NCBI GenBank assembly: GCA_040755995.1
Contig: JBFMAF010000023.1
Coordinates: 64,001-128,000 of the forward strand
DNA: 64,000 bases
Source of the DNA: Acidobacteriota bacterium
GTDB lineage: Bacteria > Acidobacteriota > CAIWXX01
Direction: 5' to 3'
The position numbers and the translations under genes were made by a program. Numbering within the stretch: position 1 is the first letter of the stretch; each line of letters begins with the position of its first letter. Of this stretch, positions 12,071 through 63,932 are shown in pieces. The notes beneath the pieces are model-generated. The model saw only the letters and a list, made by a program, of their open reading frames with translations. It was not told where the DNA came from and did not search any database.

Positions 12071-12206
12071 GTGAAGAGGTGAGACGTTAGAGGATAGACG
12101 GAAGACGTGCGCTGCTGCCACGTCGGACGTCAGACGGGAGACGTTAGACGGAAGAAGTGCGTTGTTGCCACCTTTGGCACCTGCTCTTTCGTGTTCCGTC
12201 TAACGT
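12071..12206 (+). repeat. Heptamer-arm hairpin element R1 (compound)
   Basis: gtgaagaggtgagacgttag...agacggaagacgtgcgctgctgccac...ttccgtctaacg. Confidence 0.85.
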
Positions 12207-12297
12207 AGGACGAGCTGGATTGACAGGCGGTCTTCGAGTCAAGGTGGCAGGCTATAGAGAGGGTGCAACCACCTGATTCGCGGCCACGGGCCGCCAT

Positions 12298-12642
12298 TCA
12301 GGCGGACTTCCCCAGAGTACGAAGCCGGGCCACGAGATCGCGAACATCTTCAACCGCCTGCTGGAGTGTATATCCCGACGGAATCGCAGCCCCGTCAATC
12401 AGATCCATCATCTCCCAAAGAGAGACCCCGGCGATTTTGGCCGCGCGCGACTTGCTGGCCCTGCCTTCATGATAGAGGCGCAATGCCAGTGCCTTCTTCT
12501 TCCGATCAATCCCATCCTGCAGAATCTGCCGCGCTACATCTACACGCGAAGCGTGTTCCTCTCCAGCAAGAATATCCAGGTCCGAAGCAGCCTCGTTCGG
12601 AAGACGGATGTTGAGTTGAACGGGCTTCGAGCTACTCATCAT
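12298..12642 (-). CDS. UPF0175-like antitoxin (RHH plus HTH)
   Basis: ALRLYHEGRASKSRAAKIAGVSLWEMMDL motif; next to a PIN gene. Confidence 0.75.
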   Translation of the reverse strand: MMSSSKPVQLNIRLPNEAASDLDILAGEEHASRVDVARQILQDGIDRKKKALALRLYHEGRASKSRAAKIAGVSLWEMMDLIDGAAIPSGYTLQQAVEDVRDLVARLRTLGKSA

Positions 12643-12651
12643 GAACCTCCT

Positions 12652-13185
12652 CTACTGAGCCCGGAGGCGTCGAATCTCACCTGCCGCAGCTCGTAAGACT
12701 GTGATCACAGCTTCGTCCGTATGCATCGCCCTTCCGATCCGAAGAAGCATGTCATCACACTCCTCAAAACTCACCTGCCCGCCGATCAACCCGTGCAGGG
12801 GCAGCACCTGCAGGATCATGTATTCGACACCGTGAGCAAGTGCGATGTTCCTGCCACGCTGCTCTTCCATCACCAGGACGATGCGGCGCTCCTTGGCGCA
12901 GGCAATGGTCTGGCAGTCCGTGGCACTAAGTGCGGGGGCGCTGCGCCTGATCGACACTGCCATGTGTTTCTCGGCATCGGTCAAAGTGATGACGACGAGA
13001 TCCTTGTCCCGAATGGCATCTTCGATTCGCAAGGCATCGCGATAGCCACGGGCCTTGCCCTGGACCACTGTCTCCGCCTCCACCCCGGGAATCAACGCCA
13101 TCGCGCCGAACAGGCGCTTCAGCAACCAGAGCGCGTCGATTCGTGAAAGCACGATCAGGCTGGAGGCGTCGGCTATGGCTTTCAT
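12652..13185 (-). CDS. PIN-domain toxin (DUF3368-like)
   Basis: IADASSLIVL N-terminus, VEAE, LVMEEQRGR. Confidence 0.75.
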   Translation of the reverse strand: MKAIADASSLIVLSRIDALWLLKRLFGAMALIPGVEAETVVQGKARGYRDALRIEDAIRDKDLVVITLTDAEKHMAVSIRRSAPALSATDCQTIACAKERRIVLVMEEQRGRNIALAHGVEYMILQVLPLHGLIGGQVSFEECDDMLLRIGRAMHTDEAVITVLRAAAGEIRRLRAQ

Positions 13186-13200
13186 GATCTCCTGCTACAA

Positions 13201-13228
13201 ATTGTATCACCTGGCAGGGTTTCGTCAA
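13201..13228 (-). promoter_or_regulatory. Sigma70-like promoter of the PIN/UPF0175 pair
   Basis: TTGACG-16 nt-TACAAT on the minus strand, followed by SD AGGAG. Confidence 0.6.
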
Positions 13229-13254
13229 TACGGGAGGTGTGCATGTCACACGCG

Positions 13255-13385
13255 CCGGCCGCCTGGAAATGATGAAGCTTATGGCGCGGTTCCAGGACTT
13301 CTTCCGTAGAATGCGGAGGCGTGGCTGGAGAGGTTCGACTACAAGGAGGCGGGGCCGCAGCTGTTGCTGCAGGCTTTCTTGCGTC
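13255..13385 (+). pseudogene. Internal fragment of the AAA-ATPase/nuclease gene
   Basis: GRLEMMKLMARFQDFFR...AWLERFDYKEAGPQLLLQAFL matches 23821-23950. Confidence 0.85.
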
Positions 13386-13450
13386 CTCCTCCAGCCGGGT
13401 CCTTCAGGACCACGGATGCCGCCGGGGCCGTTGGATCGTAGTTGACCCCG

Positions 13451-13666
13451 TCACAGGCGTGCATCGGATGAATCCTCGATGATCTCCATGCGGAAGTCGC
13501 AGGCTTCCTCGGGGTGAGCCAAGCGCGGGCTCGGAACGTGAGCGATCTGTTCCACGTGAACTTCAGGGACGACCACAAAGACCCTGGTGTGCTCGGGCAA
13601 CAGCACGTTGCCGTCGACCCTGACCCTTCCTTCCTCAACGACGCCTTCGTATGTCGCCACTCTCAT
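13451..13666 (-). CDS. Small antitoxin-like hypothetical protein
   Basis: MRVATYEGVVEEGRVRVDGNVLLPEHTRVFVVVPE; SD GGAGG; the downstream partner appears truncated. Confidence 0.55.
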   Translation of the reverse strand: MRVATYEGVVEEGRVRVDGNVLLPEHTRVFVVVPEVHVEQIAHVPSPRLAHPEEACDFRMEIIEDSSDARL

Positions 13667-13833
13667 ATACGAACCTCCCCGCCTCTCAAGATCATAGACC
13701 AGGAGCAGGCGGCAGACAAGATCGGCTGGGAAGACGGGCGTCTATGGTGCAGAGACAGCCATGCGAGTCGCTCATCCCGACCTTGTCCTGCAAGGAGCAG
13801 GGTGGTGAACGACACCGGGCGGATCGGGCGGGA

Positions 13834-13921
13834 GAGACATGTTAGACGAGAGACGTTAGGCGGAAGACGTGCGCTGCTGCCACCTCGGGCGCCCGGCTCT
13901 TTCGTCTTTCGTCTCCCGTCT
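13834..13921 (+). repeat. Heptamer-arm hairpin element R2
   Basis: gttagacgagagacgttaggcggaagacgtgcgctgctgccacctcgggcgccc...ttcgtctttcgtctcccgtct; abuts the mazF stop; preceded by AAA fragment RVVN..GRIGRE. Confidence 0.88.
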
Positions 13922-14274
13922 TACAGCGGCAACAAGCCGACGGCAATTCTGATCCCGTCTTCCAGCTGCCTGAGCAGGTCTTGGTTCAAGGTGCCGAGGC
14001 ATTGCGAGAGCTTCGCCCGGTCGAGTGTCGTGGTCTGGTGGCATAGCGCCACGCTCTCCTGGCGGAGCCCACCGGCAGCCTTTGGCAGACCGACCACTGT
14101 GGGGCCCCGCTGTCCCTGTGCGGGGGAGGTAGAGACAGGCACGACGATGATCGATCTCCATCCGGGCGTCGTGTTGAATCCGTCGTGGGACACAACGATG
14201 ACCGGTCGCGTGCCTCTCTGCTCCGAGCCCGAGCGCGGTTTCAGGTGGGCGACCCAGACCTCGCCGCGCTTCAT
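13921..14274 (-). CDS. mazF: PemK/MazF-family endoribonuclease toxin
   Basis: MKRGEVW, GSEQRGTRPVIVVS and SVALCHQTTTLD motifs. Confidence 0.9.
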   Translation of the reverse strand: MKRGEVWVAHLKPRSGSEQRGTRPVIVVSHDGFNTTPGWRSIIVVPVSTSPAQGQRGPTVVGLPKAAGGLRQESVALCHQTTTLDRAKLSQCLGTLNQDLLRQLEDGIRIAVGLLPL

Positions 14275-14525
14275 CTGGCCTTATCCTCCGAGAGGAGGTG
14301 CTCGACGGAGGACGCCTCCAAGCTCGCATCCAGGTCCGTGTCGGTACCCGCGAACTTCCTGGCGTAGGCCGTGATGGAATCGTGAATGGCCGCCTTCTTC
14401 CTCTCGGCCAGCCATCTCTCGATTGCCCGCCTGACGAGCACGGTTATCGGTTCGCCCTCGCGTTTGGACTCCACGCTGAGTTGGAAGTAGACGTCGTCGG
14501 GAACGGGAACGTGACAGTTGCGCAT
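14271..14525 (-). CDS. RHH-type antitoxin
   Basis: Small ORF with ATGA overlap onto mazF; VPVPDDVYFQL..LVRRAIERWL. Confidence 0.7.
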   Translation of the reverse strand: MRNCHVPVPDDVYFQLSVESKREGEPITVLVRRAIERWLAERKKAAIHDSITAYARKFAGTDTDLDASLEASSVEHLLSEDKAR

Positions 14526-14601
14526 GATAGCCCCCTGTGCCATAGGTCCATGGCAGATATTGTGCCACATCATAAGCCATCATTCAAGGCTGATCGGCTC
14601 A

Positions 14602-15411
14602 TCAGGATGCCAAGCCGCCGAGCGTGGTGGCCCCGGAATGGCCATGGCTGCGGCGATGGAGGCCACGCGATGGCGACCTGTTGCGTTTCTGGACGGAGAC
14701 GGCGTTTGGCTCCCAGGCAAGTTGTGGCTCCAGCTCGACTCGATTCTGGTGATAGTAGGGCTGCTCGCCCTTCAGCCCGTCGTACGATTTAATGCCCACA
14801 GCCAGCTCGCCAGGGAGCGCCGCGTCTTCCTCAAGGTCCAGACAGAGCACAACCCCCGGCTCGACTTCCCTGTAGCGAAATCCGCTCTCCGGGCAAACCA
14901 TGATCCCGTCCTCGCCAGGCCTGCTTAGCCGATGGCCGTGACGGCTCTTCCAGCCTTGCTGGCGCGCCGGCACTCCGACCATGAGCGCGTAGTCCGGCAC
15001 GTCCTTCGCGACGACAGCTCCGGCTCCGACGAAGGCATAGCGGCCGATCGTGATCCCGCAGACGACGGTGGCATTGGCTCCAATGGAACAGCCGCGCCTG
15101 AGCAGGGTTCGCTCGTACAGGCTGTGGCGGACCACCTGTGACCGCGGGTTGGTGACGTTGGTCAGGACGCAGGAGGGGCCGAGGAACGCGTCGTCCTCGA
15201 TGATCGAGCCCGTGTAGATCGAGACATTGTTCTGCACCTTCACATTGTTCCCGATGACCACATCACTGCCCACATAGCAGTTCTGCCCGAAGATGCAGTT
15301 CCTGCCGATCTTCACGCTCTTCATGATGTGGCAGAAATGCCAGATATTCGTCCCCTCGCCGATCTCGCACGGCTCGTCCACGTATGCGGATTCGTGTTTG
15401 AAATACGGCAT
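14602..15411 (-). CDS. wbpD: WbpD-like hexapeptide N-acetyltransferase, copy 2 (C-terminus probably extended by fusion)
   Basis: IWHFCH, NNVKVQNNVSIY and FLGPSCVLTNVTNPRS motifs; paralog of 61583-62281. Confidence 0.85.
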   Translation of the reverse strand: MPYFKHESAYVDEPCEIGEGTNIWHFCHIMKSVKIGRNCIFGQNCYVGSDVVIGNNVKVQNNVSIYTGSIIEDDAFLGPSCVLTNVTNPRSQVVRHSLYERTLLRRGCSIGANATVVCGITIGRYAFVGAGAVVAKDVPDYALMVGVPARQQGWKSRHGHRLSRPGEDGIMVCPESGFRYREVEPGVVLCLDLEEDAALPGELAVGIKSYDGLKGEQPYYHQNRVELEPQLAWEPNAVSVQKRNRSPSRGLHRRSHGHSGATTLGGLAS

Positions 15412-15425
15412 GATGCGGGCTCCTC

Positions 15426-16092
15426 TCACTCCCGGCCAGTCACCCATGGCCTATCGATGAATGGGTGCGGGCAGTCGGGCGCCTCGATGACTCGCGCAGT
15501 GCGTATCTGGTGCACCAGTTCAATCGACGGCCGGGCATCCTTGATCCCAAAGCCGTCGCCGGCCAGGGTTCTCTCGTAGACGCGTGTGTGCAGGTCGGTG
15601 AATCCCTCGGTGAACTCGACCTCCTGCCCGTCCACCGTGATCGACCGGTACGTACTGCGCTGCCCCGGCTGCACTGAGAATGGCAGGTCACCGGTCTCGA
15701 GTGAAAGAAACCATCGGACGTTGGCTCGGGCGAGCTCGATGAACCCGGCCATGCGCCGGCGTTCGGTCAGGTGTACCTCAGAGCGTTGCATCGAGCCGAA
15801 AAGCCACATCAGCAGATCGAAGAAATGGATGCCTATGTTCGTGGCGATGCCGCCTGATCGGTCTTCCTGGCCCTTCCACGACACGTCGTACCACCGGCCT
15901 CGGCTAGTGACGTACGTCAGGACTACCTCGCGTCGCGCCGTCCCGGTCTCGCTGTCGAATCGACGTTTCAGCTCCACGAGAGCCGGGTGCAACCGCAGCT
16001 GCAGCAGGGTGTAGACGCGCCGGCCCGACTCGGTCTCGATCTGCTCGAGCGCGTCGAGGTTCCACGGGTTGATCACCAGCGGCTTCTCGCAG
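15426..16092 (-). pseudogene. wbpB: WbpB (Gfo/Idh/MocA oxidase) C-terminal half
   Basis: CEKPLVINPWNLD, GGIATNIGIHFFD and EFTEGFTDLHT motifs; the NAD-binding N-terminus is missing. Confidence 0.85.
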
Positions 16093-16340
16093 TGCACGCC
16101 CTCCTGGTCTGGCCTGAGAAGGAGCACCCCTGCGTGGCTGCCGGGCGGGTGAGCGCGCGCATCGGCCAACCCCTTGTCTGCAGTCACAAGGAATCGCCGC
16201 TCCGACTGGACCCCTTCCCATAGCTGAGCATCCTTCCATCCGCCCATCTTCTCATCAACGACGCGCTCAGCCTGGTGGCCGCGGTCGCAGATCAACTGGG
16301 CCACCGCCCTCGGCAGGTCCTCGTCCACCTTGATGCGCAC
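16093..16340 (-). pseudogene. DUF5615 PIN-like toxin, truncated and fused in frame to the wbpB fragment
   Basis: MRIKVDEDLP, LVTADKG and HAGVLLLR motifs; downstream of DUF433. Confidence 0.8.
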
Positions 16341-16350
16341 GCTTCCGCAG

Positions 16351-16590
16351 TCAGGATGGGAGGGGCATCAGAACTTCCTGATGCACCACTTCCGCGGCAT
16401 ATGCCAGTGCAGCCTGGATGTCCTCGACGGAGAGCTGAGGATATGCAACGAGAATAGCCCCCGCGTTCATTCCATCCGCCAAGCTACCGAGGATGATGGA
16501 CACGGGAATCCTCGTTCCCTTGATGCACGGATCGCCGTGGTGCAATTCCGGATCAATCACCACCCTGCCAGTCCAGCGGGTTCGGTTCAT
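16351..16590 (-). CDS. DUF433 antitoxin
   Basis: DPELHHGDPCIKGTRIPV and YPQLSVEDIQAALAYAA motifs. Confidence 0.9.
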   Translation of the reverse strand: MNRTRWTGRVVIDPELHHGDPCIKGTRIPVSIILGSLADGMNAGAILVAYPQLSVEDIQAALAYAAEVVHQEVLMPLPS

Positions 16591-16679
16591 GCGTGTCTCC
16601 GTATATACCTCCGGGGTCCCGACCTACGTCCAGATTATACCCCCTTGCAGACCAGTAGCAACAGCCAGCTCGCCGAGAG

Positions 16680-16890
16680 GCCGAGAAGCCCCGAGAGGAT
16701 GTGCATGAGGGTATCAGGGCGGTGCTCAACGAGTGCGGGTCTCGCGCCAGGGCTTACCTGGGCGACGACGGTCTCGAGCGAGGGTCACCTCGTCATCTTC
16801 GACCGCGATCCGAAGAAGAGCTGGGATGCGAAGGTGTTCCAGCGGACGGGGACGTTCGAGGGGAAGACGATTCGGGTGTGGGGAATGTGA
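16680..16890 (+). pseudogene. Internally deleted AAA-ATPase/nuclease remnant
   Basis: REDVHEGIRAVLNECGSRAR (N-terminal part) joined to GHLVIFDRDPKKSWDAKVFQ...VWGM* (C-terminus). Confidence 0.85.
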
Positions 16891-16980
16891 AGAGGTGAGA
16901 CTTTAGACGGAAGACGTGAGCTGCTACTCGTTCGCGCGCCTTCCTCCTCCGTCTTCGGTCTCCCGTCTTCCGTGTTCTGT
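16891..16980 (+). repeat. Heptamer-arm hairpin element R3
   Basis: agaggtgagactttagacggaagacgtgagctgctactcgttcgcgcgcc...ccgtcttcggtctcccgtcttcc. Confidence 0.88.
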
Positions 16981-16989
16981 CCGACCCCT

Positions 16990-17530
<541 letters not shown>

Positions 17531-17697
17531 TCACATCTTCTGACTCTCCTGTGAACACAGTATACCATCCGGCAGCCGTCTCCGTATCCACACGCGGTGC
17601 TCGACATTCGGCCGCTGGGTGCGGTTTCTTGGTCACGACGCACATGAAGATGCTCAGAGCCATGCGGCGCCAAGCCCTGGGGTTGAAGGTAAAGGGG

Positions 17698-17826
17698 GGG
17701 CCGCGAGAACGGTCTCGGGCGTGGCCGCGCCGACCTGCTGGTGATCTGGCGGCATCCGGGCGGCGTGCAGAAGACGGTAGTCGAGCTCAAGAGACGTCAG
17801 ACGGAAGAAGTGCGTGAGCTGCTGCT
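17698..17826 (+). pseudogene. AAA-ATPase/nuclease fragment ending in half element R4
   Basis: GLGRGRADLLVIWRHPGGVQKTVVELK runs directly into agacgtcagacggaagaagtgcgtgagctgctgc (17791-17826). Confidence 0.85.
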
Positions 17827-18321
17827 GACTCTGTACTTTCCATCACATTGGGATCTGGAACGCATCCACGATCGGGGGGCGGATGGAAATCCGGGAGTTG
17901 GTTCTCGAAATGAAGCAATTCGAGCGCAGACTGACCAAGACGGCGTCCTGCCGTTTTCACGCCGCCTGCAACATCAGCTCCCGGAGCCCTGGGATGCCCC
18001 AAAGAGCGTTCGGATCTCCGCCCGAAGACCGTCCACCAGCGGCTCGTTCCAGCCGCTCCGGGCGTCGGCGACCACGTGGCGATCGAGTTCCGAAAGGTCC
18101 CGCAGCGAGCCGAACTTCGACGAACTTGTCAGCCATCACGGCGGGGCCCCAGGTCGAACTTGACACGGCGCCGCCGCTCATCACCCTTCTCCACGAGCGC
18201 GTCGTGGGGCACGTTCTGGATGACGTTCCAGGGCCTACAGAGCCGCCCGCTGGTACGCCACCTGCGACGAGGTCCGAGCAGGACCTTGCTGTCGGGCCGC
18301 ACAAGCCGCTCGAGTCTGCTC

Positions 18322-18428
18322 CTGGGACGCGAAGGTGTTCCAGCGGACGGAGACGTAGGAGGACAAGACGATCCAGGCGTGGGGGATGCGAGACGAGAGA
18401 CGTGAGCTGCTGCCGGCTCGCGTGCCGT
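18322..18428 (+). pseudogene. AAA-ATPase/nuclease 3' end plus half element R5
   Basis: WDAKVFQRTET*EDKTIQAWGM followed by agacgagagacgtgagctgctgccggctcgcgtgcc. Confidence 0.8.
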
Positions 18429-18432
18429 CGGA

Positions 18433-18855
18433 TCACGGAACCACAGGGAATCCCAGGGCCGCCGCGTTGGTCCTCACGCGTGCGTCCAGGCTCAGCACCG
18501 ACAGACCCGGCACGGCGGCGCGAGCCACCAGGGCCGAGACCAGATGGAGCGCGTCCAGAGTCCGAACGGGCTCTTCCGGGAAGGGCTTGCGAGCGCGGTC
18601 CAGGATCGCACTGTCCAGGCCGATGATGGTCCAGCCGGGCACGACGGACGCCAATACCGACCGGCAGTCTGCCGCATCGACTTCCGACATGATCCTCGTC
18701 GCGACAAGTCGCACGAAAACGCGCTCCGCCTCCACTACAGTCAGCGCAGATGTAGTCACCAGGTCGGCATGGGCCAGGACGTTTCGGACGCGCGCGCCGG
18801 CGGGCTCGCCGAGAACCCATGCCAGGAGCGCCGATGTCTCCAGATAAAGAGTCAC
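18433..18855 (-). CDS. vapC: VapC-like PIN toxin
   Basis: LYLETSALL, TVVE, VRTLDALHLVSA and SLDARV motifs; GTGA overlap with the antitoxin. Confidence 0.85.
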   Translation of the reverse strand: MTLYLETSALLAWVLGEPAGARVRNVLAHADLVTTSALTVVEAERVFVRLVATRIMSEVDAADCRSVLASVVPGWTIIGLDSAILDRARKPFPEEPVRTLDALHLVSALVARAAVPGLSVLSLDARVRTNAAALGFPVVP

Positions 18856-19145
18856 CGTTCCCCTCGGCTGTCGTCCAGCGCCGCTATCGCGGTGCCGGGA
18901 GGGACCCGCGGCCGCCGGGGCCGGTACTTGGAAGGGTCGTGGTCGGCCCCGAGCACCACAGCCCCCTGCCTTGCCAGCAGCACCAATCCAGGATATGACG
19001 CCGCCTTCGTCGCCGGGAGTCCCGGCCTCCTCAACTCCGCAACGACCTCCCCACGATCCGTTACCAAGATCTCCTCGCCACCCTTGACCAGGCGGAGGTA
19101 CTCGCTGAAACGGCTCTTGATCTCCCGGATGCCCACGGCCTTCAT
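18852..19145 (-). CDS. Phd/YefM-family antitoxin
   Basis: VGIREIKSRFSEYLRLVKGGEEILVTDRGEVVAEL. Confidence 0.9.
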   Translation of the reverse strand: MKAVGIREIKSRFSEYLRLVKGGEEILVTDRGEVVAELRRPGLPATKAASYPGLVLLARQGAVVLGADHDPSKYRPRRPRVPPGTAIAALDDSRGER

Positions 19146-19166
19146 GGTCGGTCCTCCTGCGTGAAT

Positions 19167-19195
19167 AATGTAGTCTCAACAGACCATATTGTCAA
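19167..19195 (-). promoter_or_regulatory. Sigma70-like promoter of the Phd/VapC pair
   Basis: TTGACA-17 nt-TACATT, then SD AGGAGG. Confidence 0.65.
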
Positions 19196-19202
19196 ATCGC
19201 GA

Positions 19203-19300
19203 GTGAAGAGGTCAGATGTTAGACGATAGACGGAAGGCGTGAGCTGCCGCGAGCTCCCGCGTCTCCCGTCTTTCGTCTTCCGTCTCCCGTCTTCCGTGCA
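19203..19300 (+). repeat. Heptamer-arm hairpin element R6
   Basis: gtgaagaggtcagatgttagacgatagacggaaggcgtgagctgcc...cgtctcccgtctttcgtcttccgtctcccgtcttcc. Confidence 0.9.
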
Positions 19301-19322
19301 TCGTCTGCCTGAGCGTCCGTCG

Positions 19323-19350: not shown

Positions 19351-19356
19351 CGAGAG

Positions 19357-56239: not shown

Positions 56240-56240
56240 C

Positions 56241-57365: not shown

Positions 57366-57385
57366 CGTTCCCGCATCCGTTCACA

Positions 57386-57450
57386 GGGACGGGAGACGTT
57401 AGACGAAACACGGGGACGGCGTCGGCGTCTCACGTCTACCCTCTCACGTC
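57386..57450. repeat. Heptamer-arm element R13
   Basis: gggacgggagacgttagacgaaacacggggacg...cgtctcacgtctaccctctcacgtc. Confidence 0.8.
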
Positions 57451-57775
57451 CTGCGTCGTTGAATCGATGCAATGAGCCCTGAAAGCAGGGCGAAGACTCC
57501 TTCGAGATCCGTGCTCAGGGACCCGAGAGTATCATCGGGGAAATAGGAAAGCTCGCGGGCGATTCTCGCCTGCGTCTCGAGCTCCATCACCGAACCGCGG
57601 GCGAGAGACGGAAAACGAGAGACGTAGGACGGAAGACGGAGACGGCCGCACGCCGCATCTGGCTTGCCATGCCATAGAGCTCCTCCTTGGTGAAACGTGC
57701 GGTCACTGTGTAGACCTGTCTCACCAGCGCCATCGCCCTTTGCCAGACCTCCAAGTCATAGTGCCTACCGCGCAC
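57444..57775 (-). pseudogene. Four-helix-bundle (23S rRNA IVP-like) protein whose centre is replaced by repeat arm R14 (57603-57645)
   Basis: HYDLEVWQRAMALV..Y..T..F.KEELYGMASQMRRAAVS / repeat arm / ARGSVMELETQ..IARELSY...LLSGLI*. Confidence 0.88.
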
Positions 57776-58098
57776 CTCTCTGACCTGTCTCCTCAGCGCC
57801 AGTTTTCAAGTCTCAGTGTATACCCCAGGGCTTGCAAGCGCTGATAGTGGTCCGTGTTGCCTGTAACCAGGGTCAGCCCGTTCGCAACGCCGTAGAGGCG
57901 CGGTCTCGCGACTCAGCATCGCCTCCTGTTCGACACCATCGATCAGATCCGGCTCCTCAGCGAAGAGTCCGAGCGGCGACTGCGGCCCAGTCCGCTGCTC
58001 GAGGAACACCTCTACCGCCTCAGCGACCATCTCGGCCTCGGAGCGGTGTTCCTGTCGCGCGGCTTGACAAAGCTTCTGATAGGGACGATCAGCAGCAT

Positions 58099-58281
58099 TC
58101 AGCGGTATAGCCGTTGCAGCTCATCGAGCGAGCTGACCGTCTTCAGGGCTTCTCGAATGACCTTCAGGACCTCCACATCCGAAATCCTGCTAATCTCTGG
58201 TACAAGCCTCAGCGCGTCCAAGCCAAACCGCAGCTGCAATCCAAGCTCGATAGCTGAGATGCGCCCCTGGTGAAGGCCTTC
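58099..58281 (-). pseudogene. Orphan Rpn C-terminal module A
   Basis: EGLHQGRISAIELGLQLRFG..ALRLVPEISRISDVEVLKVI..LDELQRLYR*. Confidence 0.8.
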
Positions 58282-58285
58282 GGCA

Positions 58286-58365
58286 CGGAAGACGCAAGAC
58301 CTAAGATGGGAAACGACGGCGCGTCTGACGTCTCTCGTCCAACGTCTTCCGTCTCTCGTTCTCAC
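58286..58365. repeat. Heptamer-arm element R15
   Basis: cggaagacgcaagacctaagatggg...cgtctgacgtctctcgtccaacgtcttccgtctctcg. Confidence 0.85.
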
Positions 58366-58375
58366 GCAAGGCGCA

Positions 58376-58840
58376 TCACGCCGGAATGGAGACCGGCACG
58401 AGCGCGAGTCGCAGGCCCAGCGCCTCGGCAACCTCGCGCAACTTGGCCACGGAGAAATCCTTCTTCCCGGCCAGCACCTGCGACAAAAATGCCTCGCGAA
58501 TCCCGGTCGTCTTGCAGAAGTTGCATCGCGACCCGAATTTTTCCTCGATCCGGTCAACGATGTAGTCTCGATAGTCCGGCGGGGCAACCAAGCCCTGGGA
58601 TATGCCCAACCTCATCTCCAAATCCTGAGCAATCCGATAGAGAGGGTGTCTCATCCTCTCCTTCGGGGACGGGGACAGCATGGCATCCGCCAATTCCTTC
58701 TGCCACAGAACAGAGAATCGCCCCCACTCAACCCCCGACTCGAAGTACTGCATCAGGCGCCGCAGCGCCTGCCGCTGCGCACTTGTGAGCTGCATCAGAT
58801 CGAATTGCCTCCCCGTCAGTGTCTCATAACGGCGAATCAT
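58376..58840 (-). CDS. XRE-family HTH protein
   Basis: C-terminal GIREAFLSQVLAGKKDFSVAKLREVAEALG. Confidence 0.7.
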   Translation of the reverse strand: MIRRYETLTGRQFDLMQLTSAQRQALRRLMQYFESGVEWGRFSVLWQKELADAMLSPSPKERMRHPLYRIAQDLEMRLGISQGLVAPPDYRDYIVDRIEEKFGSRCNFCKTTGIREAFLSQVLAGKKDFSVAKLREVAEALGLRLALVPVSIPA

Positions 58841-58914
58841 ACGGGCCTCCCTCAAAGTACTCGGCCTCCCCGCGTATCACCACGCGAATACATTGCTGAA
58901 TAAATGTTAGGCAT

Positions 58915-59074
58915 ACTCGTCGGAGAATCAAGCGCAGCTCGTCCACATCCGAGATCTTGTATATCTCAGGCAGCAGCCTCACCCCGTCCGCACCAAAGCG
59001 CAGTTCCAATCGCAGCTCGATAGCTGAGAGCAGGCCCTGATGAAGGCCCTCAGCCCGGCCCTCGGCTCGGCCCG
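58915..59074 (-). pseudogene. Orphan Rpn C-terminal module B
   Basis: GRAEGRAEGLHQGLLSAIELRLELRFGADGVRLLPEIYKISDVDELR. Confidence 0.8.
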
Positions 59075-59215
59075 GGATGGGAGATGAAAGACGGGAGACG
59101 AAAGACCAGAAGGCCGGGGCAAGCAGCAGCCCACCTCTCACGTCTCTCGTCTAACATCTCACGTCTAACGTCTTCCGTCTCCCGTCCTGGGGACACTCCG
59201 TCCTCGTCACGTTCC
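59075..59215 (-). repeat. Heptamer-arm hairpin element R16 plus 27-bp flanking motif
   Basis: aaagacgggagacgaaagac...gcaagcagcagcccac...cgtctctcgtctaacatctcacgtctaacgtcttccgtctcccgtc + ggggacactccgtcctcgtcacgttcc. Confidence 0.88.
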
Positions 59216-59290
59216 GAAAACCCGGAGCCGCGTCGCCGGTGGGGTCGGCCACAGAAGTACATGGTACGAGCATGTGAACCGAACGTCAAT

Positions 59291-59385
59291 AACGGAAGAC
59301 GAGCGACGGGAGACGGGAAATGGCAGACGGAAGATGGGGAAGGGGGACGCGTCTTACGTCTAACGTCTCTCTTCTCTCGTATCAC
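59291..59385. repeat. Heptamer-arm element R17
   Basis: cggaagacgagcgacgggagacggga..agacggaaga...cgtcttacgtctaacgtctct. Confidence 0.85.
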
Positions 59386-59505
59386 GTGCGGTAGATACGG
59401 CGCAGCTCGTCGAGCGGTCGGGCCGTCTTGACGCCTTCGTGGATCGCCTTGAGGACATCCACGCCGGAGATCTTCCCGATCTCGGGCATAATGCGCTGCA
59501 GCTCT
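59382..59505 (-). pseudogene. Orphan Rpn C-terminal module C
   Basis: LQRIMPEIGKISGVDVLKAIHEGVKTARPLDELRRIYRT*. Confidence 0.75.
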
Positions 59506-59518
59506 CGGCCTTGCCGCG

Positions 59519-59737
59519 CTAGGCGGTGGCAATCAGCACGCGTTCTACCTCTTCGGGGAGCTCGATGAAAACGAAATGGTTCACCTGGTACAGATAGTCT
59601 TCGCCGTCCTCGTCGACTATGCGGACCAGATCATCCGGCTCCGCCCGTTCGTCGGGAATGACCTCGTATATCTTTCTTGGAATCAAGGAGGCTTTGTAGC
59701 CTCTGTTGTGAACGCAGATCGCGTATCGAGTTCTCAT
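59519..59737 (-). CDS. Small conserved hypothetical protein
   Basis: AICVHN.GY.ASL..RKIY...D..LVRIVDEDGEDYLY; preceded by the cut 3' end (DMKIKLYLE*) of a partner ORF. Confidence 0.65.
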   Translation of the reverse strand: MRTRYAICVHNRGYKASLIPRKIYEVIPDERAEPDDLVRIVDEDGEDYLYQVNHFVFIELPEEVERVLIATA

Positions 59738-59789
59738 CTCAGCCCTCTATTCGAGATACAGTTTGATCTTCATGTCCCTTCGCCCGTCA

Positions 59790-59902
59790 CGGAAGACAAA
59801 AGACGGGAGACGAAAGACGAAAGACGAGGGAGTAGCAGCGCGCGTCTTACGTCTACCATCTCACGTCTCTCGTCCCGGGCACACTCCGTCCCCGTCACGT
59901 TC
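59790..59902 (-). repeat. Heptamer-arm hairpin element R18 plus 27-bp motif
   Basis: ggaagacaaaagacgggagacgaaagacgaaagacg-agggagtagcagcgcg-cgtcttacgtctaccatctcacgtctctcgtc + gggcacactccgtccccgtcacgttc. Confidence 0.9.
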
Positions 59903-59979
59903 ATCCAATGTACCACACGTACGGGTCCTGTGCCGTCCGCCCGGCTTGATATACACATCACAATATGCATAATCGGCGT

Positions 59980-60249
59980 GTGAGATTCCATTGGCACGAG
60001 GACAAGCGAATGAGGATTCTTCAGCGGCATGGGCTCGACTTCGCCCAGGCCGAGCAGGTCTTCCAGGGCCCCACGTTCACCTTCGAGGATATCCGCAGGG
60101 ATTACGGAGAGCGCAGATGGGTGACGCTTGGACTTCTCGCTGCAGACGTCGTCGTGATCGTGCACACGGAATCCGAAGACGAAATCCGCATCATTTCGAT
60201 GCGAAAGGGTGAAAGACATGAAGAAAAGCTCTACTTCGAGAATCTCTGA
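59980..60249 (+). CDS. brnT: BrnT-family toxin
   Basis: FHWHEDKR...HGLDF, DYGERRW and IRIISMRK motifs; TTGATA-16-CATAAT promoter 6 nt before the GTG. Confidence 0.9.
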   Translation: MRFHWHEDKRMRILQRHGLDFAQAEQVFQGPTFTFEDIRRDYGERRWVTLGLLAADVVVIVHTESEDEIRIISMRKGERHEEKLYFENL

Positions 60250-60523
60250 TCTGCGCGACGAGTACCCGGTGGTCACCCCGGCGGACATGGATCGCGCCAA
60301 GTTTCGCATCGGACTCAGCCCGGTGCCGCGCAAGCAGCGGATCAACATGATGCTCGATAGCGGTATCATCGCCTACTTCAAGGCAAGAGCCGGCGGGCGC
60401 GGCTACCAGACGTTTATTAACGAGGCACTCAAGCGAACCATCGAGTCCGAATCCCTGGAGACCCTGTTGCGGCGCGTCATCAAAGAAGAGCTCGACCGCC
60501 AGGCCGCTCGCAAGGCCTCGTGA
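60218..60523 (+). CDS. brnA: BrnA-family antitoxin
   Basis: KQRINMMLD..IIAYFK..G.GYQTFINEALK. Confidence 0.9.
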   Translation: MKKSSTSRISDLRDEYPVVTPADMDRAKFRIGLSPVPRKQRINMMLDSGIIAYFKARAGGRGYQTFINEALKRTIESESLETLLRRVIKEELDRQAARKAS

Positions 60524-60615
60524 TCGGTCCCCCCGCCCGCGCCGGTCTCTTTGGCGGCAACATGTAGTGCTCACCCGGAACGCACGGGCCCGAGGTGTTA
60601 AAGTAGGGAATCATG

Positions 60616-60705
60616 GGACGTTAGACGGAAGACGAAAGACGGGAGACGAGAAGGCCGGGGCAAGCAGCAGCCCACGTCTCACCGCTAACGTCTTCCGTCT
60701 CTCAT
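60616..60705 (-). repeat. Heptamer-arm hairpin element R19
   Basis: gacgttagacggaagacgaaagacgggagacg-agaaggccggggcaagcagcagccca-cgtctcaccgctaacgtcttccgtctc; core identical to R16. Confidence 0.9.
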
Positions 60706-60765
60706 TCTCAGCCTGTCCAGACCGCACCGCAGCTCCAATCCGGGCTCGTCGCGCACAACCGCAGG

Positions 60766-61551
60766 CTATCGTTCAAGATCGAAGCTATGCACAACCACCC
60801 AACCGCGGCGTCCCGCCTCCTCCTCCGTCCCGGGCATGGCCATGTGGGTGACCAGCACGACCACGGCATCCGCCGTCCCCCAGTGCGATCGCGTCCGCGC
60901 CACCAACCGCTCAACCCCACTGAAATGCTTGCTCGCCGAGAGCTGCGTCTTTGCCTCCCCCAAGAGCCGCACCTTGCCGCCGTCCGCTCTCTCCGCAAGG
61001 CCCCAGAGGTTCACCTGCAGCGGTCGAGGGCCATTGCCCAGCCACACCCGCCGCAACGGCTCGACCACCTTGAGGCCAAGCCGCTGGGCAAGGAAAGCGG
61101 GCAAGGTGCGGTAGGCCAGGTTCTCGAGTCCGTATCCCACGGAATGGGACAGACCACCAAGCTCCTCCCGCATCTCCTTCATCTCCCCAACAAGCCCACG
61201 CATCGCCTCAGCAAGTTCCTCGACTCGCTTCTCTGTCCGTGCCTGCGCCTCAGCAAGCTCCTCAACTCGCCTCTCAGTCCGTGCCTGCGCCTCAGCAAGC
61301 TCCTCAACTCGCCTCTCAGTCCGTGCCTGCGCCTCGGCAAGCTCCGCTACAATGGCGCGCAACTGCACCTGACCCTCGGCAAGGTCAGCCACGACCGCTT
61401 TGAGCTCTCTGAACTCCGCCTTGGTCACCTGGTCAGCGAGCTCATCGTGCAGCTCCGCAAACGCCCTCATGAGCAGCCCCCTCGCCTTTGCGTCAAGCTG
61501 CGCCTCGGGAAGCTCCGCCAGCTCAGTCAATGTTCGCGCAAGGCTTGGCAT
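60766..61551 (-). CDS. Coiled-coil repeat protein with probable C-terminal PD-(D/E)XK-like domain
   Basis: (AEAQARTERRVEEL)x3 from a 42-bp tandem repeat at 61205-61345; GYGLE and QVNLWG..LLGEAK motifs. Confidence 0.65.
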   Translation of the reverse strand: MPSLARTLTELAELPEAQLDAKARGLLMRAFAELHDELADQVTKAEFRELKAVVADLAEGQVQLRAIVAELAEAQARTERRVEELAEAQARTERRVEELAEAQARTEKRVEELAEAMRGLVGEMKEMREELGGLSHSVGYGLENLAYRTLPAFLAQRLGLKVVEPLRRVWLGNGPRPLQVNLWGLAERADGGKVRLLGEAKTQLSASKHFSGVERLVARTRSHWGTADAVVVLVTHMAMPGTEEEAGRRGWVVVHSFDLER

Positions 61552-61582
61552 AGACTCCTCTCATCACGAATGATAGCATCTG

Positions 61583-62281
61583 TCAGCGCCTATCGCTACA
61601 TCCCGGAGCGATTCGCGTCGAGATCCGTCCGGCGTCTTCCATTATCTCGTCGTGATAGCGCGTGCCCACCCTGAGGTTCTCGGGCAGCGGGGCCTCCTCG
61701 TCCAGGTCGAGGCAGCTGAGGCAGCCCGGCGACCGCTCCTTATATCGGAGGCCGGTCTCGGGACAGGTGTAGACGCCCTCGCCGTCCGGGTCGCGCAACG
61801 GCAGGCCGTGGCGGCTGACCCATCCCGACTGGCGGGCAGGCACCCCGACCAGGAGAGCGTAGTCAGGTGCGTCCTTCACCACCACTGCGCCTGCGCCGAT
61901 CAGGGCGTACCGCCCGATCGTGATTCCGCAGACGATCGTGGCGTTGGCCCCGATCGAACAGCCGCGGCGCAGCTGCGTCTTCTCGTAGAGGCTGTGCCGG
62001 TTCACTTGCGAGCGGGGATTGGTGACGTTGGTCAGGACGCACGACGGCCCGAGGAAAACGTCGTCCTCGATCACAGTACCCGTGTAGATCGAGACGTTGT
62101 TCTGCACCTTCACGTTGTTGCCTATGATCACGTCATTGGCTACGTTGCAGTTCTGACCGAAGATGCAGTTGCGGCCGATCCGGGCGCCCTTCTGGATGTG
62201 ACAGAAGTGCCAGATCTTGGTGCCGTCCCCGATCTCGCACGGCTCGTCCACATAAGCCGACTCGTGCTTGAAGTAGCTCAT
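61583..62281 (-). CDS. wbpD: WbpD-like N-acetyltransferase, copy 1
   Basis: Hexapeptide repeats; IWHFCH and TNVTNPRS motifs; downstream of wbpA. Confidence 0.88.
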   Translation of the reverse strand: MSYFKHESAYVDEPCEIGDGTKIWHFCHIQKGARIGRNCIFGQNCNVANDVIIGNNVKVQNNVSIYTGTVIEDDVFLGPSCVLTNVTNPRSQVNRHSLYEKTQLRRGCSIGANATIVCGITIGRYALIGAGAVVVKDAPDYALLVGVPARQSGWVSRHGLPLRDPDGEGVYTCPETGLRYKERSPGCLSCLDLDEEAPLPENLRVGTRYHDEIMEDAGRISTRIAPGCSDRR

Positions 62282-62305
62282 TCAGCTCTCATTCTCGCAG
62301 GGAGC

Positions 62306-62377
62306 CCACGTCTTCCGTCTAACGTTTTCCGTCTTCCGTCCGACGTCCCCGGGCACACTCCGTCCCCGTCACGTTCC
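62306..62377 (-). repeat. Single arm R20 plus 27-bp motif
   Basis: cacgtcttccgtctaacgttttccgtcttccgtccgacgtc + gggcacactccgtccccgtcacgttcc. Confidence 0.85.
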
Positions 62378-62456
62378 AGGCAGCTGATGTGCCGCCGCCT
62401 GGAATTCTACTTTCGTCGTACTTATCTTAGGGGCACGCGGTCACAGGGTCAACACC

Positions 62457-62480
62457 CCGTCTTCCGTCTTCCGTCTCACG
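62457..62480 (-). repeat. Single arm R21 starting at the wbpA stop codon
   Basis: Minus strand reads TGAGACGGAAGACGGAAGACGG. Confidence 0.8.
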
Positions 62481-63798
62481 CCCTGACCACAACCGGGCCG
62501 CCTTCGCGCTTCGGCAGCAGGTTGCGTGTGTCGACGACGAGCGAGACATTGCGGTAGAGCTCCGCATCGCGGAACTTGCGGTGGGCGGTGGAAACGACGA
62601 CGGCGTCGTACCGGGCGAACTCCTCGGGGGTGCACGGGACCGATTGCGTGCCCAGGTCGTGGTGGCGCCCTTTGCGGGCGACCGGGATGTATGGGTCGCA
62701 GTAGCTGACGGCTGCGCCCTTCTCCTGCAGCAGCTCGATGATCTCGAACGACGGCGACTCGCGGTCGTCGTCGATGTCGGCTTTGTAAGAGAGACCGAGC
62801 ACCAACACCCTGGCTCCGCGGATGCTGGTACCCCGCGCGTTCAGCGCATCCACGGTCTTCTCCACTACGTACCTCGGCATCGACGTGTTGATCTCGCCGG
62901 CGAGCTCGATGAAGCGTGCCCACACCCCGTGCTCCGCAGCCTTCCACGCGAGATAGAACGGGTCGAGCGGAATGCAGTGCCCGCCAAGCCCCGGTCCCGG
63001 ATAAAACGGCATGAAGCCGAACGGCTTCGTCTTCGATGCCTCGATCACTTCCCAGATGTCAATCTTCATCCGGTCGAAAATCACCTTCAGCTCGTTGACA
63101 AGCGCGATGTTGACACCGCGGAATATGTTCTCCAGAAGCTTCGACGATTCGGCGACCTCAGGCGACGAGACCCGCACGACCCTGTCGACCGCTGCCGAGT
63201 ACAGAGAAACCGCCAGCTCGGTCGACGCCTCATCCATCCCGCCCACCACCTTCGGGATCGTCCTGGTCGTGAACCTTTCGTTCCCCGGGTCTTCGCGTTC
63301 CGGAGAGAAGGCAAGGAAAAAGTGCTGCCCGCACTTGAGGCCCGCGGCCTCGAACCGCGGCAGCAGCTCCTCACGCGTAGTCCCGGGGTAGGTTGTGGAC
63401 TCCAATACCACAAGCTGGCCCGGCCGCAGCCGGCGCGCGATTTCATCAGCCGTGCTGCGGATGTACGACAGATCGGGCTCGCGGTGCACGCCGAGCGGTG
63501 TCGGAACGCAGATCAGAATCGCATCGCATCCTGCCAGGCGATTGAAGTCGACCGTCGCCGAGAGCCGGCCGTTCCTCACGGCCGCCGCCACCCGAGCGCC
63601 GTCGATGTGCCTGATGTAGCACTCGCCGCGGGCCAGCTTCTCCACCTTGGCCGGATCCACGTCGAATCCCAGTACCGGGAAGCCGGCCCCTTCGAAAACC
63701 AGCCCGAGAGGCAGCCCCACGTAGCCCAACCCGACGATCCCCACGAGTGCCTCGCGATCCTGGATCTTTCGTAGAAGCTCGTCGCTGATCTCAGCCAT
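62476..63798 (-). CDS. wbpA: UDP-N-acetylhexosamine 6-dehydrogenase (WbpA/TviB family)
   Basis: GLGYVGLPL, CVPTPL, ESTTYPGTT, SPEREDPGN, GGHCIPLDP and YKADIDDDRESP motifs. Confidence 0.9.
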   Translation of the reverse strand: MAEISDELLRKIQDREALVGIVGLGYVGLPLGLVFEGAGFPVLGFDVDPAKVEKLARGECYIRHIDGARVAAAVRNGRLSATVDFNRLAGCDAILICVPTPLGVHREPDLSYIRSTADEIARRLRPGQLVVLESTTYPGTTREELLPRFEAAGLKCGQHFFLAFSPEREDPGNERFTTRTIPKVVGGMDEASTELAVSLYSAAVDRVVRVSSPEVAESSKLLENIFRGVNIALVNELKVIFDRMKIDIWEVIEASKTKPFGFMPFYPGPGLGGHCIPLDPFYLAWKAAEHGVWARFIELAGEINTSMPRYVVEKTVDALNARGTSIRGARVLVLGLSYKADIDDDRESPSFEIIELLQEKGAAVSYCDPYIPVARKGRHHDLGTQSVPCTPEEFARYDAVVVSTAHRKFRDAELYRNVSLVVDTRNLLPKREGGPVVVRA

Positions 63799-63813
63799 CG
63801 TGACTCCCCAGAA

Positions 63814-63932
63814 GTTAGACGTTAGACGGAAGACGTGAGACGCGCGCTGCACCGGACGGGAGACGTGAGCCGTTAGACCGAAGACGCACCCGGCTGCTTC
63901 CTGAAGCCCCTTCGTCTTCCGTCTTCCGTCTC
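63814..63932 (+). repeat. Heptamer-arm element R22 in the wbpA leader
   Basis: ttagacgttagacggaagacgtgagacgcgcgctgc...ttcgtcttccgtcttccgtctcc. Confidence 0.88.

Follow-up and report, generated by a model that had tools for sequence, protein, structure and literature searches.

What are the hairpin-forming repeats that crowd both sides of a polysaccharide gene cluster in the genome of an Acidobacteriota bacterium, and how have they shaped the genes among which they lie? The stretch that raises this question (the window from here on) comprises 64 kb of contig C23, that is, 0.8% of a 7.74-Mb, 56-contig draft genome with 62.7% G+C, in which one of the encoded proteins has its closest public relatives in Vicinamibacteria and Bryobacterales assemblies. 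The contigs of this genome (G000) are named C1, C2, C23 and so on, its relatives are numbered from G001 upward, and individual loci bear L numbers. An earlier note on the same DNA had described a family of about 22 elements with arms of tandem heptamers, and had regarded them as recombination sites of a gene-cassette process akin to that of integron attC sites. The family proves real and the arms do coincide with rearrangements; the reading that we favour, which in our judgement has about an even chance of being right, is that these are locally expanded, gene-less hairpins, i.e., selfish and non-autonomous repeats that spread by recombination between their arms in dispensable flanks.

The existence of the family follows from simple counts. 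The motif AGACGNNAGACG has 68 matches in the window against a mean of 0.34 in shuffled sequences (maximum 3; 0/100 shuffles reach 68), and these represent 41% of the 165 matches in the whole genome. A nhmmer profile, for which 17 candidate copies were extracted and aligned and the 11 cleanest used, was searched against both strands of the whole genome and gave 48 matches, of which 40 are on C23, every one of them within the window, and resolve into about 22 sites; three arm-only runs (22579-22621, 57606-57663 and 62457-62476) bring the total to 25, divided into 14 full hairpins and 11 partial elements. The copy number first proposed is thereby confirmed, and so is the picture of two clusters: 13 sites lie on the left (within 12072-26341) and 12 on the right (within 56244-63936), whereas the roughly 30 kb between them (26.37-56.21 kb) contain no pattern match, pentamer cluster or profile match. 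In the rest of the genome the profile recovers only four sites, two of them full hairpins (C24:75161-75311, with the gene of a histidine kinase on one side and that of a response regulator on the other, both on one strand, and C37:266309-266401, between convergent genes) and two partial (C37:253303-253376 and C2:6880-6956). The C24 and C37 hairpins share no flanking sequence with the window, and no direct target-site duplication is visible at them, their flanks fading into degenerate arm units; as these two full copies stand in unrelated contexts, the hairpin can exist and arrive alone. The elements are, in short, one family, independent of its flanks, situated between genes, gene fragments and other copies, and strongly clustered instead of evenly spread, and single AGACGRR arms are scattered over many contigs of the genome.

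The anatomy of the elements is the one originally described, i.e., 2-6 AGACGNN units, a core of the form GTG(A/C/G)GCTGCT...GCGCC and then NNCGTCT units, except that the first variable base of the core can also be G. This core is about 25 nt long (12-30 nt across the 14 full hairpins, none of which encloses a gene). In the alignment of the copies, the AGACG/CGTCT pentamers are 90-100% conserved and the 2-nt spacers are variable. It had been suggested that the arms fold into 5-bp stems separated by 2x2 internal loops: the folding itself stands, with six copies (three of them folded on both strands, eight folds in all) giving predicted energies of -41 to -50 kcal/mol, z-scores of -3.1 to -6.4 and stems of 28-40 bp, but the loops hold only in part, as the spacers, which make up six columns, are paired in 2-10 copies out of 14 and are thus only partly unpaired. 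The orientation, assigned by the strand-specific nhmmer score, also agrees with the earlier description, since all the left copies are on the plus strand and the right ones on the minus strand, with two exceptions (63809-63850 and 63854-63936, both plus). All full copies sit in spacers between genes or gene remnants, the spacing is array-like (0.05-3 kb), and five half-elements, starting at 12072, 17790, 18385, 62300 and 63809, are broken inside the core or just past it.

The arms mark points at which DNA has been joined, duplicated and cut short. A wbpB-like gene, encoding a GFO/IDH/MocA oxidoreductase, is present on the minus strand in three pieces: A (55796-56239, the N-terminal Rossmann part), B (26330-26860, a middle part) and C (15429-16106, a C-terminal part fused behind a DUF5615 fragment). 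Piece B stops at 26330, precisely where the right arm of the 26241-26341 hairpin has its outer end, and its detached C-terminal tail lies 4.2 kb away at 22017-22115 (minus strand; 76% to fragment C by tblastn, and found by blastn as well); as no more than 24 nt of copy B are missing, the 4.2-kb block (22116-26330) was inserted almost precisely, and its far end is not an arm. At 17792, an arm is fused to a fragment from inside an AAA_22 gene. A 1789-bp duplication (19259-21038 = 22578-24349, 86% identity) runs from inside a right arm to the end of the hairpin that follows, and the order of the spacers differs between its two copies, which shows that the arms turn over faster than their flanks. 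On the right side, a PF05635 (23S rRNA intervening sequence, IVS, protein) gene is interrupted at its GCCGTCTCC (CGTCTCC) codons by about 45 nt of arm-like sequence, and a 17-residue PF05635 fragment (56189-56239; profile positions 35-51) is fused to the arm at 56.24 kb. The idea of recombination sites is therefore sustained in part, by the junctions at 26330, at 17792 and at the ends of the duplication, and not by the far end of the insertion or by any linked recombinase. The earlier note had passed over these broken PF05635 genes, the Rpn/YhgA putative transposase encoded at 56346-57365, and the connection of PF05635 with a wider class of elements.

That connection is the following. In this genome, a period-7 array is found within 1 kb of 4/6 PF05635 loci against a background of 0.11; PDDEXK_9 genes (2/4) also exceed the background, and PemK (3/21) and DUF433 (4/18) genes are at about its level, so that toxin-antitoxin (TA) genes show no enrichment near heptamer arrays. 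Among the five intact PF05635 genes, one has GGTTCMM arms, one has AATGCGG-arm hairpins on both sides and two have no period-7 array. G035, from the same phylum and a different family, carries an intact PF05635 gene between AGACGGG x4 and a complementary array (locus L047), and a second one between CGTCTRT x18 and ATAGACG-type arrays, located between two polysaccharide genes. The N-terminal PF05635 fragment of the window is closest to the AGACGGG-armed protein of G035 (58.5% over 41 aa; next best 47.7%). With the PF05635 protein of G035 as query, matches with E <= 1e-10 appear in 171/401 Acidobacteriota genomes (counting G000), and in the best 30 loci from these 401 genomes, period-7 arrays lie within 350 bp on both sides in 24, on one side in three and on neither in three, tallies that take in the unpublished genomes G025 and G048, although nothing specific is claimed from those two. 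By inspection of the consensus units, the arm pairs of those 24 loci are mostly reverse-complementary, and the heptamer differs from locus to locus. The window elements display the two complementary period-7 arrays around a loop, and a PF05635 gene within that loop in 0/14 cases, and hence we place them, most of them without a gene, in a wider class of hairpins in which a PF05635 gene normally lies between two inverted arrays of tandem heptamers. Compared by eye, the core has no similarity to the leader or trailer of the G035 gene, as a remnant of the ends of a PF05635 gene might have. A literature search, with most subscription journals outside its reach, returned no account of PF05635 genes or gene-less hairpins between inverted heptamer arrays; the one paper in which PF05635 is named is a review of diversity-generating retroelements (DGRs), where its homology to Avd is mentioned (PMC10053308). 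The class is widespread and barely studied, and the window shows it as a dense, mostly gene-less island. As a separate observation, at locus L046 (G035:C25:64000-71000) a PF05635 gene at 3240-4150, with a polysaccharide gene on either side, is wrapped in two nested layers of heptamer arrays, GACCATR outside and CGTCTRT x18 inside.

How far does the AGACG heptamer itself extend? Three consecutive AGACGNN units occur in 7/41 relatives counting G000, mainly in G018 (126 matches) and G035 (21), and in neither of the two genomes of the same family. Short AGACG hairpins were found in 5/400 other Acidobacteriota genomes (7 pattern matches per strand in G282 and 1-2 in the others, compared with 18 in G000). 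IMG/VR contains 57 stretches with four AGACGNN units, and one virus in this resource, whose 70-kb genome is complete (CheckV 100%, direct terminal repeats), bears five hairpins in its intergenic DNA, all with AGACGCC x4 arms and a common core of about 45 nt. A metagenome scan for an arm followed by the core start (AGACGNNAGACGTGNGCTGCT) yielded seven loci, most of them chance matches inside coding DNA, together with two (L029 and L031) where hairpins have other arm words and a similar core start. Beyond this heptamer, the source genome has, by Tandem Repeats Finder (TRF), 456 period-7 arrays that do not overlap and reach 2.8 units or more, with 20 in the window versus 3.8 expected. Their lengths are not geometrically distributed, and the mode is near 4.5 units (30-32 nt); the numbers of period-6 arrays are highest at 3 units and drop beyond, and those of period-8 and period-9 arrays drop already from 2 units. 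Roughly a dozen dispersed hairpins belong to a CAGTTGN family, and another family, with AATGCGG arms and a core of 85 nt, has its main concentration at C32:363-393 kb (L151 and L152, 363000-393200), where its hairpins fill nearly every spacer among giant kinase, PF05635, CheR, CheB, kinase-receiver and GGDEF genes, and also adjoin PIN, MazF, Uma2, DUF433 and PDDEXK_9 genes. The same kind of mixed island thus recurs without polysaccharide genes, and a polysaccharide locus is not a requirement, given that this second family occupies a Che-like signalling operon. A cargo gene of the window, AAA_22/PD-(D/E)XK, behaves differently from PF05635: 0/20 public loci of the 530-aa protein contain AGACGNNAGACG, among 16 of these loci analysed with TRF a substantial adjoining period-7 array is seen only in L015 (and a short one in L002), and two AAA_22 paralogues outside the window have no hairpin, so that this gene family is not inherently tied to hairpins. 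Arms are likewise near only one of the three YhgA genes of the genome.

Do the elements belong to any class already described? An attC site is ruled out, as the pair formed by RYYYAAC at the 5' side and GTTRRRY at the 3' side is present in 0/14 full elements; GTTRRRY appears in the elements only where AGACGTTAGACG happens to create it, mostly in the arm that is 5' when the element is read in its own direction, and the only two attC-pair matches in the window correspond to one palindromic site inside a gene at 48504-48618. No match to PF00589 (tyrosine recombinases) or PF01797 (HUH transposases) exists inside the window, in agreement with what had been stated, and the nearest PF00589 matches, 21 and 29 kb past its right end, are far below the IntI cut-off. 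The genome does encode an integron-integrase homologue at C36:325985-326929 (468.7 bits against an NCBIfam cut-off of 265, with one in-frame TAA), on a contig with no AGACG elements, where a simple R''/R' scan around the IntI-like gene found no recognisable attC array and the nearby repeats look like coding paralogues. A partial second homologue of the integron integrase is located at C55:238444-238875. Clusters of attC sites that lack an integrase are known as CALINs. The elements resemble such attC/CALIN arrays in being imperfect hairpins of 60-140 nt, spaced at about 0.5-2 kb, with TA and small-ORF (open reading frame) cargo and no adjacent integrase, and differ from them in the absence of the RYYYAAC...GTTRRRY pair, in the periodic 5+2 arms, in a cargo that is not co-oriented and in their occurrence also as single copies in ordinary operons.

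A population of REPINs (PMC3116915) or other repetitive extragenic palindromic (REP) sequences is ruled out too, because the family is not dispersed, 40/48 nhmmer matches (about 22 of about 26 sites) being in a single 64-kb window. Both are short, palindromic, non-coding and non-autonomous hairpin repeats that form families within a genome, but REPINs are dispersed in tens to hundreds of copies along with a cognate REP-associated tyrosine transposase (RAYT), and the arms here are tandem heptamers. The only PF01797 (Y1_Tnp) matches, at C36:277154 and C17:22272, are on contigs without a full element, and the single AGACGNNAGACG match on C17 is 17 kb away. As regards miniature inverted-repeat transposable elements, the arms are inverted repeats, the C24 and C37 copies show no direct duplication, and no transposase with shared ends was found, in a search that did not cover all insertion sequence families. 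The elements are not intrinsic terminators either: terminator-like sites are not enriched (10 versus 7.5 +/- 3.3, and 6 versus 5.2 +/- 2.1), only the inner cores of two copies (12166 and 20988) match the terminator pattern, and there are no U-tract terminators. Finally, a scan of the window with the gathering scores of Rfam 15, rRNA families included, gave 0 matches.

A close parallel is the 23S rRNA IVS (Coxiella burnetii helix 45, Leptospira and others), whose terminal stem is cut by RNase III and which may carry an S23p/PF05635 ORF (PMC4990558). Like the IVS depicted there, the elements have complementary ends, a long stem (28 bp in Coxiella; folds of -41 to -50 kcal/mol here) and a loop that may carry a PF05635/S23p gene, intact between arms in relatives such as G035, whereas the window holds only broken pieces fused to arms and most copies are gene-less. 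The same source presents the IVS as sporadic in distribution, suggestive of horizontal spread, with an origin and a way of moving that are unknown, which is a further likeness. Unlike the IVS, inserted in helix 25 or 45 of the 23S rRNA, the window elements lie between protein genes; their arms are tandem heptamers instead of a unique inverted repeat; and they are mostly gene-less, with a core of 25 nt, in a multi-copy family within one island. An excess of heptameric repeats in bacteria has been noted (PMC4692102), and in Beggiatoaceae the TAACTGA repeats are direct, with one inverted repeat among the 170 sets tabulated in PMC4679880. With such repeats the present arrays share their intergenic position, the period of seven, the large number per genome (the 456 mentioned above), the presence in distant lineages and the lack of a known function, but those described are mostly direct and upstream of genes, and here the arrays form inverted pairs around a core or a gene. 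Cyanobacteria have short tandemly repeated repetitive (STRR) sequences and small dispersed repeats embedded in heptamer arrays, reportedly the subject of Mazel in 1990 and Elhai in 2008.

How might a region such as this have arisen? On the reading that we favour, the family would have multiplied locally in the dispensable flanks of the polysaccharide cluster, among addiction and nuclease genes (PIN, MazF, BrnTA, DUF433/DUF5615, AAA_22-PD-(D/E)XK, PDDEXK_9 and Rpn/YhgA genes surround the elements). The copies would be selfish, non-autonomous palindromic repeats that spread via recombination in their shared arms, by slippage of units and by unequal or illegitimate exchange, with no dedicated site-specific recombinase. 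They would be tolerated inside operons because the hairpins form long stem-loops in the mRNA, which may be processed in the manner of the rRNA IVS stems that RNase III cuts, and the cassette-like look of the region would be largely a by-product of hairpin spread and recombination.

Several points weigh against this. There is no direct sign of movement, no target-site duplication was seen, and no recombinase was found linked to the elements. As only two full and two partial copies exist outside the island, local duplication could by itself account for most of the copies, and the favoured reading does not explain the conserved core. A function of the RNA from one strand should show as an asymmetry of G-U against A-C; the strand that carries the core in its sense orientation folds better in only 10/14 copies, by -0.96 kcal/mol on average, and results for the C32 family are mixed. 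In G018, the AGACG heptamer is present as single arrays without short hairpins, mostly between convergent genes, as judged from ORF calls, at the loci inspected, with no PF05635 gene beside the arrays examined, and the 70-kb virus with AGACGCC-arm hairpins has no PF05635 gene. In the source genome, the only other PF05635 gene with AGACG-type repeats (C35:27626) has them, as a CGTCTYC array, on one side only. Furthermore, the window PF05635 fragment could be compared with the G035 gene over only 41 residues, and the genes that come next in similarity to the latter (61% identity) are accompanied by other heptamers, so that the type of PF05635 gene and the type of heptamer are only loosely tied. 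The WbpD-like protein of the window has only ~30%-identity matches in G001, G002, G018 and G035, and no orthologous locus with which to compare the gene order.

Which other processes could have produced the same picture? The cassette idea, in its strong form, holds that the hairpins are sites of site-specific capture and shuffling at which units of gene plus hairpin are moved by an enzyme, perhaps the PF05635 protein, the Rpn/YhgA nuclease or the AAA_22-PD-(D/E)XK protein. It would account for the array-like spacing, for a cargo that is typical of chromosomal integrons (TA pairs, small ORFs and promoterless fragments), for the nearly precise 4.2-kb insertion in wbpB copy B with an arm at one end, for the five half-elements broken within or just after the core, for the hairpin that adjoins the AAA_22 stop codon in the two intact copies and also in three tail fragments, and for the mostly opposed orientation of the two arrays around the central cluster. 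Nevertheless, we consider it unlikely: the attC core pair is missing from the elements and the two recombinase families from the window, and the IntI-like gene is on an element-free contig; most of the left cargo is on the minus strand beside plus-strand hairpins, so that on this side the cargo and the hairpins are oriented independently, and the insertion has no arm at its other end; and neither the outside AAA_22 paralogues, the YhgA genes nor the PemK and DUF433 genes keep company with arms as such a platform would demand. A more general version, which we rate as slightly more doubtful, sees in heptamer-arm hairpins the cis sites of a widespread, transposase-free gene-cassette system, in which a ring-shaped PF05635 protein would bind about five arm units, one per subunit, much as the trp RNA-binding attenuation protein (TRAP) wraps its spaced triplets, and would in this way direct excision, insertion or RNA processing between arms. 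A ring of five would fit the two solved structures of the family, 2GSC and 2RLD, which have five chains each as deposited, and the modal arm of about 4.5 heptamers. Under such a system the window could show the carriage of foreign cargo (TA pairs, nucleases and pieces of sugar-pathway genes) and the remodelling of a polysaccharide locus by an integron-like platform of a new kind.

A role in RNA offers an explanation of a different nature, with no mobility at all: the hairpins would be mRNA stem-loops that serve the host in RNase III processing or stabilisation, separate cistrons, and are copied along with neighbouring DNA. Phage T7 has intergenic RNase III sites. In accordance with this idea, all full copies are in spacers, 8/10 right elements with a profile-assigned orientation are co-oriented with the minus-strand operon, the C24 copy separates the kinase and regulator genes of one operon, another family stands between every gene of the intact Che-like operon, the virus has its five hairpins between genes, and the stems of 28-40 bp with strong z-scores invite the analogy with RNase III-cut IVS stems (PMC4990558). 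The folding energies, however, show no clear strand asymmetry, U-tract terminators are absent, the family is restricted to one island (absent from the two genomes of the same family, with short AGACG hairpins in so few others), many copies are half-elements or adjoin dead genes, and the left copies are antisense to most of their neighbours, and on balance we find this explanation as improbable as the enzyme-driven capture of cassettes. Passive instability, i.e., heptamer microsatellites that expand by slippage at palindromic spots and resemble each other through local duplication, with neither function nor mobility, is in our view distinctly improbable. It is suggested by the abundance of period-7 arrays, by the scattered single arms, by unit numbers that vary from 2 to 6 between copies, by the arm that grew inside the PF05635 gene from a CGTCTCC seed and by the presence of most copies in one 52-kb span; it sits badly with pentamers that are conserved while the spacers drift, with array lengths that peak instead of decaying, with arms that are complementary within a locus though the heptamers differ between loci, and with the same core on C24 and C37. 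The chance that the repeats were merely misjoined in a metagenome-assembled genome is very small indeed. The draft state of the assembly and an AAA_22 paralogue cut by the ends of contigs C1 and C2 recommend some caution, yet the copies differ by 8-22% and have each their own flanks, genes read coherently through the junctions, and similar heptamer-arm hairpins, some of them around PF05635 genes, are found in independent genomes and in a virus.

The interest of the locus depends on which of these is right. If the hairpins are mobile or recombinogenic, they would help to explain the long-noted excess of 7-base repeats in bacteria and would provide a function for this common and uncharacterised "rRNA IVS protein" family and a genomic context for the origin of rRNA intervening sequences. 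The window is useful in that it shows the gene-less form at high density together with its effects on neighbouring genes: a sugar-pathway gene split, an ATPase-nuclease gene duplicated, and selfish genes interleaved in a surface-polysaccharide operon. Since surface-polysaccharide loci determine the recognition by phages and by immune systems, a class of repeats that makes such loci change faster would matter widely; should the hairpins be no more than RNA punctuation or products of slippage, they are a descriptive curiosity.

The individual copies of the left cluster, all on the plus strand, begin with a partial element (left arm and core) at 12072-12124 (nhmmer E 1.9e-9, model positions 5-57) that abuts a full hairpin at 12122-12214 (E 2e-20). 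Full hairpins follow at 13835-13926, directly 3' of the MazF stop codon (E 1.5e-24), and at 16881-16979, after an AAA_22 3' tail fragment at 16771-16890 (E 3.5e-22; by self-BLAST, 16771-16977 = 24148-24353). Two half-elements come next: 17790-17833 (E 4.3e-4), a left arm and core start joined to the internal AAA_22 fragment at 17698-17792, and 18385-18428 (E 7.2e-4), a left arm and core with no right arm, after the AAA_22 tail fragment at 18322-18388. The first AAA_22/PD-(D/E)XK gene is bracketed by full hairpins, one 5' of it at 19202-19303 (E 1e-23; fold -49.5 kcal/mol, z -5.7) and another that starts at its stop codon, 20946-21044 (E 6.4e-26; -45.6 kcal/mol, z -5.2). A further full hairpin at 21851-21950 (E 1e-25) is contiguous with a partial element at 21951-22003 (core and short right arm, E 2.5e-8), which also abuts the tail of wbpB copy B. 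The right arm at 22579-22621, found by pattern search and self-BLAST, starts the second copy of the 1.79-kb duplicated unit, and the cluster closes with the full hairpins at 24258-24355, after the second AAA_22/PD-(D/E)XK gene (E 2.3e-25; -49.2 kcal/mol, z -6.2), and at 26241-26341, the one at which wbpB copy B was cut (E 3.5e-25).

On the right, the minus-strand copies comprise the 56244-56349 element (E 4e-6), an arm array (56248-56294) with a weak remainder, fused to the 17-residue PF05635 fragment and to the start of wbpB fragment A; a short full hairpin immediately 3' of the broken PF05635 gene (57388-57457, E 2.2e-6); a full hairpin with a shortened core (58283-58364, E 1.5e-8); one with extra arm units (59074-59189, E 1.6e-20 and 8.2e-3; -42.2 kcal/mol, z -4.7); a degenerate full hairpin (59293-59385, E 1.9e-11); two more full hairpins, at 59790-59876 (E 1.6e-19) and 60612-60711 (E 1.8e-22; -49.2 kcal/mol, z -6.4); and a half-element (arm and core start) at 62300-62345, about 20 nt upstream of the start of a hexapeptide acetyltransferase gene (E 1.7e-4). 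Two runs bear no strand, namely the arm-like heptamers at 57606-57663, in place of PF05635 residues 43-58 from the GCCGTCTCC (AVS) codons, and a three-unit arm at 62457-62476, found by pattern search, that touches the stop codon of the nucleotide-sugar dehydrogenase gene. The two plus-strand exceptions are a half-element (arm and core start) at 63809-63850 (E 5.5e-6) and a full hairpin at 63854-63936 (E 2e-12). Apart from these, a period-8/16 array (CGTCTCCG-like) at 2277-2333, between convergent DegT and thioesterase genes, resembles a degenerate single arm.

As regards the genes themselves, the element-free cluster in the centre (27009-55772, minus strand, Pfam) contains group-1 glycosyltransferase, Wzy-like, sugar transferase, DegT aminotransferase, epimerase, asparagine synthase-like and other genes. 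The left flank, whose cargo next to the plus-strand hairpins is mostly on the minus strand by the ORF calls, has two PIN genes, one of them at 12652-13185 (minus; weak matches to Pfam PIN families, and PADLOC PDC-S70 at 4.4e-9); a MazF/PemK toxin gene (13924-14280; PF02452, 8.5e-26) with a small upstream partner gene (13924-14579 for both, minus); a second hexapeptide sugar acetyltransferase (14605-15411, minus), paralogous (75% aa) to that of 61586-62281; and a DUF433 antitoxin-type gene (16354-16623, minus; PF04255, 1.6e-23) with a DUF5615 partner at about 16100-16340 (PF18480). The AAA_22 ATPase gene, with a C-terminal PD-(D/E)XK-like domain whose match is weak (Pfam, tblastn), is represented by two intact 530-aa copies on the plus strand, at 19357-20949 and 22675-24267 (87% aa identity), and by at least five fragments. 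A paralogue elsewhere in the genome is split over the contig ends C1:39535-41058 and C2:27012-27158, which suggests that C1 and C2 are adjacent. Also on the left are a 5'-truncated GT2 (TuaG-like) glycosyltransferase fragment (21121-21534, plus; NF047683 positions 101-238 of 252) and a broken AAA-ATPase_like/PDDEXK_9 gene (24336-26108, minus; PF09820 and PF08011 over three ORFs, with one TAG inside). As for the wbpB pieces, which share a strand, the CEKPLV codons close fragment A and open fragment C, 39.7 kb away; each of these two ends has the 18-nt motif, and the two versions differ at two synonymous sites. No arm lies at either break, and the arrangement looks as if the whole intervening segment had been inserted or recombined into one gene.

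At the right, the polysaccharide pathway resumes with a WbpD-like hexapeptide sugar acetyltransferase (61586-62281, minus) and a WbpA/WecC-like nucleotide-sugar dehydrogenase (62476-63852, minus; TIGR03026, 416.8 bits), interleaved with the Rpn/YhgA-family PD-(D/E)XK recombination-promoting nuclease or putative transposase (minus; PF04754, 3e-58; TIGR01784, 78.7 bits against a cut-off of 52.1), the broken PF05635 gene (57480-57757, minus; profile positions 2-42 and 59-105 in different frames), an HTH gene, a BrnT/BrnA toxin-antitoxin pair (59965-60523, plus; PF04365, 3.9e-23, and PF14384, 4.2e-9) and a coiled-coil gene (60766-61551). The latter contains at 61204-61383 a 42-bp tandem repeat (3.4 copies, 95% matches) that would be translated into a 14-residue protein repeat.

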